Shown one piece after another: positions 59,283-59,616 of a stretch of 64,000 nt of DNA. Numbering within the stretch: position 1 is the first letter of the stretch; each line of letters starts with the position of its first letter. Position numbers and translations under genes: made by a program. Source of the stretch: Dehalococcoidia bacterium (GTDB lineage Bacteria; Chloroflexota; Dehalococcoidia; DSTF01; WHTK01); NCBI GenBank assembly GCA_009377745.1, contig WHTK01000003.1, forward strand, positions 2,568 to 66,567, written 5' to 3'. A model generated the notes under the pieces. The model did no database searches. It was given only the letters and a program-made list of their open reading frames with translations, and was not told the origin of the DNA.

Positions 59283-59582
59283 AGAAATACAAAATCCCGT
59301 CTCTCAAGGGATCCCAGAGACGGGACGGTACCACCCTAGTTCCCTCCGATTGTTCTAAAGTTCGACTCCCACGCCTCACTCCAGTTCAGAGGACACTCGA
59401 CGCTGTATCGGGCTTACCCGCCCGAACCTATTCACGTGGTCGAGACTTTCCAGTCTCAACGTCTTCAGTCCGGGGGCTCTGGGGCGAGTTCGAGGCTTGC
59501 GGCTGCCGGTTTCCACCCTCCCGGCTCTCTATTAGCGCTTGGGGCCTCTACTACTCCCCTTCATCGCCTGTATGGAGTTTGG
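59283..59582 (-). promoter_or_regulatory. T-box riboswitch leader of the ilvBN-leu operon, with intrinsic terminator at 59283-59324
   Basis: Minus-strand AACTAGGGTGGTACCGTC matches the T-box consensus AATTAGGGTGGNACCGCG at 15/18 positions. It overlaps the 5' arm of the CCCGTCTCT-(11)-AGAGACGGG hairpin, which is followed by ATTTTGTATTTC. A UGGU bulge implies a tRNA with discriminator A (Leu/Ile/Val). Confidence 0.55.
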
Positions 59583-59587
59583 ATGAA

Positions 59588-59616
59588 AGTCTAGGCGGGT
59601 CGTTATGTGTTGTCAA
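59588..59616 (-). promoter_or_regulatory. candidate sigma70 promoter for the ilvB T-box leader
   Basis: Minus-strand TTGACA-17 nt-TAGACT immediately upstream of the leader. Confidence 0.35.

Follow-up and report, generated by a model that had tools for sequence, protein, structure and literature searches.

Predicted leucine T-box leader and putative leucine-rich leader open reading frame upstream of ilvB in Chloroflexota

The region upstream of ilvB was analysed in a 64,000-nt stretch of contig WHTK01000003.1 of a Dehalococcoidia bacterium (assembly GCA_009377745.1), called the window below. All coordinates are window positions, and the T-box, the leader open reading frame (ORF) and the ilv-leu genes all lie on the minus strand. 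In the direction of transcription the locus holds a promoter, a T-box leader with its terminator, a spacer of 379 nt containing a leucine-rich ORF, and then ilvB. The best overall explanation is very probably a leucine T-box, identified from sequence and models, followed by what appears to be a second leucine module at 59177-58914. For comparison, 80 related loci were found by IlvB in a species-representative genome collection, and comparisons therefore comprise 81 sequences, i.e. the window plus 80. All 80 loci derive from uncultured Chloroflexota (Dehalococcoidia, ‘Chloroflexia’ or Thermoflexus metagenome-assembled genomes), with IlvB identities of 68-86%.

Positions 59616-59284 (-) almost certainly comprise a promoter and a leucine-specific T-box leader, judging from the sequence itself and its fit to the family model. 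The promoter is of sigma-70 type (59616-59588), with TTGACA at 59616-59611 and TAGACT at 59593-59588 separated by a 17-nt spacer. A consensus scan confirmed this site, which had been put forward in a preliminary description of the DNA, at 10 of 12 consensus positions, where shuffles are expected to give 0.2 sites. The pattern TTGAC[A/G/C]-16..18-TANNNT is found at the equivalent position in all 42 sequences that have enough upstream sequence (the window and 41 related loci), and the promoters of these sequences sit 184-251 nt before the T-box motif.

When the whole window was scanned against the Rfam 15 covariance models, RF00230 (T-box) was the sole family above threshold. The match spans 59573-59304 (-) and model positions 1-219 of 219, i.e. 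full length, and scores 103.1 bits (E 1.2e-21) against a gathering score of 93 bits, in line with the T-box call of the preliminary description. Alignment by cmscan to the consensus and structure of the model places Stem I at 59567-59476, with the GA/K-turn motif GAUGA at 59565-59561, the 5' (S-turn) side of the specifier loop, AGUAGUA, at 59555-59549, the AG bulge AGAGA at 59530-59526 and the distal loop GAGGGUGGAAA at 59520-59510. The K-turn thus lies where it had been suspected, but the AGUAGUA stretch belongs to the specifier loop, on its S-turn side, and the AG box is the AGAGA farther on.

The T-box sequence itself, AACTAGGGTGGTACCGTC (as RNA AACUAGGGUGGUACCGUC; 59341-59324), begins 247 nt past the -10 hexamer, close to the 250 nt or so estimated earlier. 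Its bulge UGGU (59333-59330), within UGGUACC, complements a tRNA 3' end of ACCA, i.e. discriminator A, and here too the alignment agrees with what had been claimed. Discriminator A fits bacterial tRNA-Leu. The antiterminator is formed by AGGG/CCCU plus GUCCC/GGGAU, with a free energy (dG) of -9.6 kcal/mol. Folding gives a competing intrinsic terminator at 59324-59284, composed of CCCGUCUCU (59324-59316), the loop GGGAUCCCUUG, AGAGACGGG (59304-59296) and the U tract AUUUUGUAUUUC (59295-59284), with a dG of -16.4 kcal/mol; in DNA letters the hairpin reads CCCGTCTCT / AGAGACGGG, followed by ATTTTGTATTTC. The 5' arm at 59324-59316 is common to antiterminator and terminator, and the two folds are mutually exclusive, which is the overlap originally described and the usual design of such leaders. 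The arms and U tract of the terminator are also where they had been placed, but the loop had lost its final G and is in fact 11 nt long. A simple terminator scan does not list this terminator because the scan accepts loops of 8 nt at most.

The element thus has the sequence-level hallmarks of RF00230, namely its score, the Stem I motifs, an antiterminator with a UGGN bulge opposed to a terminator, and a specifier that matches the pathway. The T-box is real and lies far beyond chance expectation. Weighing against so firm an assignment are a score just 10 bits over threshold, insertions of 25 and 33 nt in Stems II and III relative to the model, an interruption in the terminator U tract, and a 64-kb window with no tRNA gene to which the anticodon or discriminator could be compared.

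The specificity of the T-box follows from the model alignment, in which GAA-CUC-G (59491-59485) makes up the 3' side of the specifier loop. GAA lies on the 5' side of the codon and the purine G on its 3' side, and the specifier is taken to be CUC (Leu), at 59488-59486, because of its slot in this alignment and the usual purine that follows. The preliminary description had left the codon open among CUC, AUC and GUC. GAA-CUC-R recurs in 44 of the 45 related T-boxes aligned, and the helix beneath the specifier covaries among relatives between GGGG/CCCC and GCGC/GCGC types. A leucine specifier also fits the pathway of ilvB and ilvN directly downstream, with leuA and leuCD farther on. A T-box that reads valine or isoleucine, through GUC or AUC, would likewise be compatible with discriminator A, which fits tRNA-Val and tRNA-Ile too, and with an ilvB that also serves the Val and Ile pathways; one relative, L008, does carry GUC at the specifier position. 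However, the slot between GAA and the conserved purine holds CUC in the model alignment, as does the aligned position in nearly all relatives, and on the position of the specifier codon a Val or Ile specificity is excluded as highly improbable.

With leucine as the amino acid read, CUC in Stem I would pair with the anticodon of tRNA-Leu(GAG) and the UGGU bulge with its ACCA end. Binding of uncharged tRNA-Leu would stabilise the weak antiterminator over the stronger terminator, and RNA polymerase would then continue toward ilvB-ilvN and possibly toward leuA-leuCD. Two observations on specificity among the relatives stand apart from this. The T-box of L008 (L008:314-518) has the GUC (Val) specifier, yet the leader ORF of the same locus retains a Leu-rich tail (LQALLLI), and L008 may represent a tRNA-specificity switch within the lineage. 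In 24 related loci (e.g. L016, L017, L020, L036, L043, L046, L064) the bulge is UGGC, not UGGU, although CUC is kept as the specifier; either these T-boxes tolerate a C facing A73 of tRNA-Leu, or the genomes concerned have an unusual discriminator.

The T-box is widespread among the relatives. Rfam scores it above the gathering score in five of 16 related loci scanned whole, and with an nhmmer profile made from the leaders, 54 of the 80 related ilvB loci give a match at E 4e-25 or lower. A hairpin and U tract equivalent to the terminator occur in all aligned relatives. Since the nhmmer matches, GAA-CUC-R and the promoter all recur, the element is, by sequence comparison, an orthologous and conserved leucine T-box across these genomes. 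The end of the T-box lies 236-437 nt before ilvB in the relatives, and the long spacer is kept in 54 of 80 loci.

The T-box had been described as lying upstream of ilvB, and ilvB is indeed the first gene after it, but the two do not adjoin: in the window 379 nt separate the end of the terminator stem (59296) from the GTG of ilvB (58916). The coordinates given in the preliminary description missed this conserved spacer and the leucine-rich ORF within it. The spacer matches no Rfam family even at E up to 10. Its ORF, at 59143-59000 (-), has 47 codons plus UAG (MTIQSHTAEAPLVSVSRQKRCRDRAVVLAGRRPVAATRLGLLPLLLT) and is homologous in relatives. A homologous ORF with a Leu-rich end is present in 59 of the 81 sequences and stops 83-143 nt before ilvB; in 58 of these 59 an ATG lies in frame, some 230-290 nt ahead of ilvB. 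Leucine accounts for 40% of the last 16 codons (57 distinct ORFs); its share is 8% over the remainder of the ORF, 7% in IlvB and 4.5% when the same nucleotides are read in the other two frames. The tail in the window, LGLLPLLLT, has 6 Leu among its last 9 residues. CUC and CUU make up 71% of the tail Leu codons in close relatives versus 38% in ilvB, where CUG dominates, and the run CUC-CUC-CUU hardly varies among 12 close sequences, although about 30% of the other ORF sites differ between them. This near-invariance and the codon bias relative to ilvB point to a constraint at the RNA level on CUC-CUC-CUU.

The frame of the ORF shows a conservation of its own. In nucleotide-level alignments the internal gap runs are all multiples of 3 nt, 15 of 15 in the close group and 56 of 56 in a more distant group. 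For codon positions 1, 2 and 3 in turn, the pairwise differences amount to 0.26, 0.37 and 0.29 among the close sequences and to 0.36, 0.39 and 0.36 among the distant ones. Gaps in multiples of three together with similar rates at the codon positions argue that the frame has been kept while the peptide sequence has not been selected. A regulatory leader ORF would be expected to leave such a pattern, whereas a protein or an RNA with no coding role would not, and the leader ORF here is probably a translated regulatory element. A functional small protein was considered and rejected on the equal codon-position rates and on the nature of the apparent peptide motifs, which are arms of a covarying RNA helix; the ‘VS’ (GGUCUCGG) and ‘RDR’ (CCGAGACC) motifs are the two arms of the hairpin at 59110-59072. 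In six loci (L013, L015, L018, L034, L039 and L041) a leucine-rich leader occurs without a T-box anywhere in the locus (Rfam, E 0.01 or lower), so T-box and leader module are separable. The T-box-less loci have a short ORF whose very Leu/Val-rich tail (e.g. LGLLGLGLLLLVLVLR) ends 95-143 nt before ilvB.

Upstream of the ORF, about 70 nt of the spacer (59260-59190, -) are absent from, or unalignable in, close relatives, and may be a duplication remnant or a lineage-specific insertion. This stretch contains a direct repeat, GGGTGGACACC (59233-59223 and 59205-59195), that resembles the T-box core GGGUGGUACC. A second, degenerate T-box at the repeat was rejected, as Rfam is blank there at E up to 10 and the insertion is absent from close relatives. 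Nor is an internal promoter claimed for TGGACA-16-TAAGAT (59202-59175), which overlaps the non-conserved insertion and a conserved hairpin.

Secondary structure in the spacer was assessed with RNAalifold on an alignment of the window and 11 close relatives, with 500 shuffles and slid alignments as controls. The consensus fold has 52 pairs, with 92.7% of cells paired and compensatory changes in 13 pairs; none of the 500 shuffles reaches this level, and the slid controls reach 33-52% paired. Directly upstream of the leader ORF lies the hairpin GAUCAGGG-CGAA-CCCUGAUC (59177-59158), also part of the minimum free energy fold; in relatives both of its arms carry base changes. Within the ORF, the hairpin CUGGUCUCGG ... 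CCGAGACCGG (59110-59072) has a loop whose length steps by 3 nt only (27, 33, 36, 39, 42, 45), and the equivalent helix of distant relatives covaries from C-G to U-A, translated as Ala/Gly versus Val/Asp. A further hairpin, GUCCUUCC-UUAUCC-GGAAGGAC (59000-58979; helix 8), begins at the leader stop codon, with 90% of cells paired and one compensatory pair, and GUCAGC-CCACC-GCUGAC (58953-58937; helix 9) has compensatory changes in 3 of its 6 pairs. Both are enclosed by a long-range helix (helix 7) between UCCUCCU, part of the anti-Shine-Dalgarno (anti-SD) segment UCCUCCUUA (59013-59005) that lies within the Leu codons CUC-CUC-CUU (59014-59006), and AGGAGGA (58927-58921), the Shine-Dalgarno (SD) sequence of ilvB. 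The ribosome-binding site, UAAGGAGGA (58929-58921), and the GTG start (58916-58914) occupy 58929-58914; GTG is kept in relatives, with ATG in L004. In the predicted ensemble of the window the SD bases pair with 59013-59006 with a probability of about 0.86, and imposing a ribosome footprint on the Leu run leaves the AAGGA of the SD free (pairing probability 0.12 or less).

Helices that covary, and a spacer conserved at the nucleotide and not the amino-acid level, would also be found if the T-box were the sole amino-acid sensor and the 379-nt spacer a structured 5' untranslated region, serving for instance mRNA stability or processing, with an ORF tail that does not sense leucine. The anti-SD:SD helix shows no covariation, and long open frames arise by chance in high-GC sequence, both of which suit such a role. 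On the other hand, it does not account for gap runs that are all multiples of three or for the in-frame ATG in 58 of 59 Leu-rich frames; the leucine enrichment of the tail persists over clades that use different codons, and the element occurs without a T-box too. A purely structural spacer is thus unlikely.

A translated leader is therefore preferred over a structural spacer, and the position of its Leu codons suggests how it may act. Transcripts that read through the terminator would carry the second leucine-responsive module at 59177-58914, in which CUC-CUC-CUU would form the anti-SD strand of the helix masking the ilvB ribosome-binding site. The helix would be kept open, and ilvB translated, by ribosomes that occupy the leader, above all by those that scarce Leu-tRNA slows at the Leu codons. 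When leucine is plentiful, the ribosome would depart at the UAG and the ilvB site would be masked again. One isoacceptor would in this way be read twice, in its uncharged form by the T-box at transcription and as a shortage of the charged form by the ribosome at translation, and synthesis of IlvB would require both uncharged tRNA and ribosomes that slow at Leu codons. This specific SD-masking mechanism, a form of translational attenuation modelled from predicted folds, is put forward tentatively and falls just short of an even chance.

A Rho-dependent switch would use the same ORF differently: quick completion of leader translation would let Rho load on C-rich RNA, and a ribosome stalled at Leu codons would block it. 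The segment 59055-58960 is in fact C-rich and G-poor (25-30 C versus 10-14 G per 60 nt), and Rho-dependent leader-peptide control is known for E. coli tna, a similar control having been proposed for the cys leaders of Actinobacteria (PMC1262725). Between 59000 and 58917 the minus strand has no intrinsic terminator after the leader ORF, the hairpin at 59000-58979 being followed by CGGCCCGG with no U tract, and this too would be in keeping with Rho. However, the C excess extends into ilvB and is thus largely compositional, and the extensive structure predicted for the region disfavours Rho loading; attenuation by Rho is rated as less likely than a structural spacer. Lower again is the probability that the spacer RNA binds a protein or a small ligand that controls the helix over the SD, with translation of the ORF irrelevant. 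The compact multi-helix fold closed by a base stem over the SD resembles that of the actinobacterial LEU element (PMC1262725), and some unpaired blocks such as GCGGAGGCC and GCCGUAGUA are conserved. Binding of this kind would, though, leave the strict frame and the Leu-rich tail across clades unexplained, and the absence of any Rfam match argues against it as well, so this option is improbable.

The predicted masking of the SD by the translated leader is not arranged alike in all clades. In a distant clade (L017, L019, L020, L036, L037, L045, L049, L052 and L056) the SD region of ilvB has its complement at about codons 5-9 of the leader, and these pairings covary (GGAGAAGC/GCUUCUCC, GGAGCAG/CUGCUCC, GAGGAGC/GCUCCUC). 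In other clades the SD pairs with a Leu run midway along the ORF. A scan for SD partners averaged over all loci gave merely a shallow minimum near the leader stop, because the clades place the anti-SD differently; some ilvB starts, taken from tblastn, are also off by a few nt. What these folds suggest in common is masking of the ilvB ribosome-binding site by some part of the translated leader.

Several points tell against leucine-dependent masking by a translated leader. The SD-like sequence ahead of the leader ATG in the window (GAGAGAACG-ATG) is weak, and the conserved ‘peptide motifs’ are by-products of an RNA helix, given that Ala/Gly and Val/Asp covary. With the ribosome footprint in place, the last three SD bases (GGA) still pair locally. 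The anti-SD:SD helix is invariant, 5 of its 7 pairs never varying in the window's own group, and it consequently offers no covariation evidence for or against, while a pyrimidine-rich Leu run complements an SD partly by chance. In the clade with pairing at codons 5-9 the SD is not complementary to the Leu tail, which lies 110 nt downstream, and since the position of the SD partner in the ORF differs, a simple single stalling model does not fit all clades. Finally, mutation of the Leu codons of the LEU element was reported to have no effect on regulation (PMC1262725).

The T-box part of the leader is close to a well-studied system. The specifier of the Bacillus subtilis ilv-leu T-box is CUC. 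That T-box (RF00230) and the one described here are alike in being Leu-specific, in reading CUC, in switching between terminator and antiterminator, and in having ilvB as the first gene with ilv and leu genes after it. The present leader differs in its Chloroflexota host, its large Stem II/III insertions, the lack of ilvC, the unrelated genes inserted downstream, and the conserved 379-nt leader-ORF module that separates terminator and ilvB. The B. subtilis T-box, which responds to tRNA-Leu, has been described (PMC5794164, PMC12452182), and its operon is co-regulated by the proteins CodY, TnrA and CcpA (PMC5794164).

The leader module has its nearest counterpart in the LEU element, an ORF upstream of leuA in Actinobacteria whose Leu-run codons pair with the leuA SD as a base stem, described by Seliverstov et al. 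in 2005 (PMC1262725); the LEU element also has a conserved pseudoknot, and binding of a protein or small ligand was proposed for it (PMC1262725). Both have an upstream ORF with a Leu run, and the predicted base stem between Leu run and SD lies here at 59014-58921. In contrast to the LEU element, the present module is upstream of ilvB, in Chloroflexota and behind a T-box, and its ORF is longer (45-60 codons) and has more internal helices. The module may work like the LEU element, to which it is likened by architecture; because gene, phylum and context differ, it is not assigned as a member, and it may be either an evolutionary relative or a convergent analogue. With leader-peptide attenuators (E. 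coli leuL, ivbL and ilvL; the ilvD leader of Staphylococcus aureus, PMC5794164) it shares a short ORF rich in the regulatory amino acid ahead of branched-chain amino acid (BCAA) genes, with ribosome speed as the sensor. Those attenuators have a terminator/antiterminator right after the peptide, whereas here no terminator follows and the predicted target is the SD, and for this reason the leader is not a classical attenuator. Tandem sensors are also known before BCAA genes of Bacillota, either two T-boxes or a T-box and then a riboswitch listed as ‘Guanidine-’ (PMC12452182). The present locus resembles these in having two sensors in series before ilvB or leu genes, the T-box first, but the second sensor of the Bacillota tandems is an RNA aptamer or a T-box and here is proposed to be a translated leader ORF. 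No description of a tandem of T-box and leader ORF was found in the literature searched, which did not cover the main comparative T-box survey.

Downstream of the leader, Pfam confirms the biosynthetic genes that had been listed as an ilvBN-leuA-leuCD operon. IlvB (58916-57183, -; 577 aa; TPP_enzyme_N/M/C) has an N-terminus, MKLTGAQII, that coincides with the start of the TPP_enzyme_N domain, and is followed by ilvN (57180-56605, -; 191 aa; ALS_ss_C plus ACT), leuA (54871-53324, -), an AbrB/MazE-like gene (53314-52940, -) between leuA and leuC, and then leuC, leuD and a methyltransferase gene (-). An APH-family kinase gene lies upstream on the same strand. The interval between ilvN and leuA (56608-54872) holds an Arg/Ser-rich ORF of 86 aa without a Pfam match, which is probably non-coding, a DinB_2 protein and a 189-aa ORF of no assigned family; ilvC is absent from the cluster and leuB is not adjacent. 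The operon as originally drawn stands in its gene content, but because non-BCAA ORFs interrupt the cluster and ilvC is missing, co-transcription as far as leuCD is left as a possibility.

Promoter-like sites occur before leuA and within the AbrB-like gene. The region ahead of leuA contains GTGACA-18-GATAGT (55021-54992, -), which is promoter-like, and a strong hairpin, GGCCCUCCCC...GGGGAGGGCC (about 54968-54939, -), that lacks a U tract. A search for a second regulatory RNA at 55042-54872 gave no Rfam match, the strong hairpin and weak promoter-like site being all that was found there. LeuA may be under its own control, and the T-box may therefore not govern leuA-leuCD. Control by the T-box is secure for ilvBN and just possible for leuA-leuCD. 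Elsewhere in the window, 10 kb from ilvB, a gene at 45778-47379 (+) encodes a second thiamine pyrophosphate (TPP) enzyme of 533 aa (TPP_enzyme_N/M/C), a paralogue in the acetolactate synthase large-subunit family.

Taken by itself, the T-box is a new but ordinary leucine member of a well-known family, useful for annotation and unsurprising in a phylum that already has T-boxes (PMC2494555, PMC3766115). The composite leader, with a T-box followed by a putative Leu-rich, SD-masking ORF, is an interesting new arrangement. It is possible, though with slightly less confidence than for the masking mechanism alone, that many Chloroflexota control ilvB by an undescribed two-tier sensor, in which a T-box reads uncharged tRNA-Leu(GAG) and a translated Leu-rich leader follows whose codons mask the ilvB SD (CUC and CUU in the window's clade, decoded by the same tRNA). 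If true, this would be a natural case of the charging state of one tRNA being read twice, by RNA and by the ribosome, at two levels of expression. The diverse comparative set, in which 58 of 81 sequences have the leader ORF, a T-box being present in some of them and absent from others, could help settle how elements that pair a Leu run with an SD work, a question posed for the LEU element since 2005.

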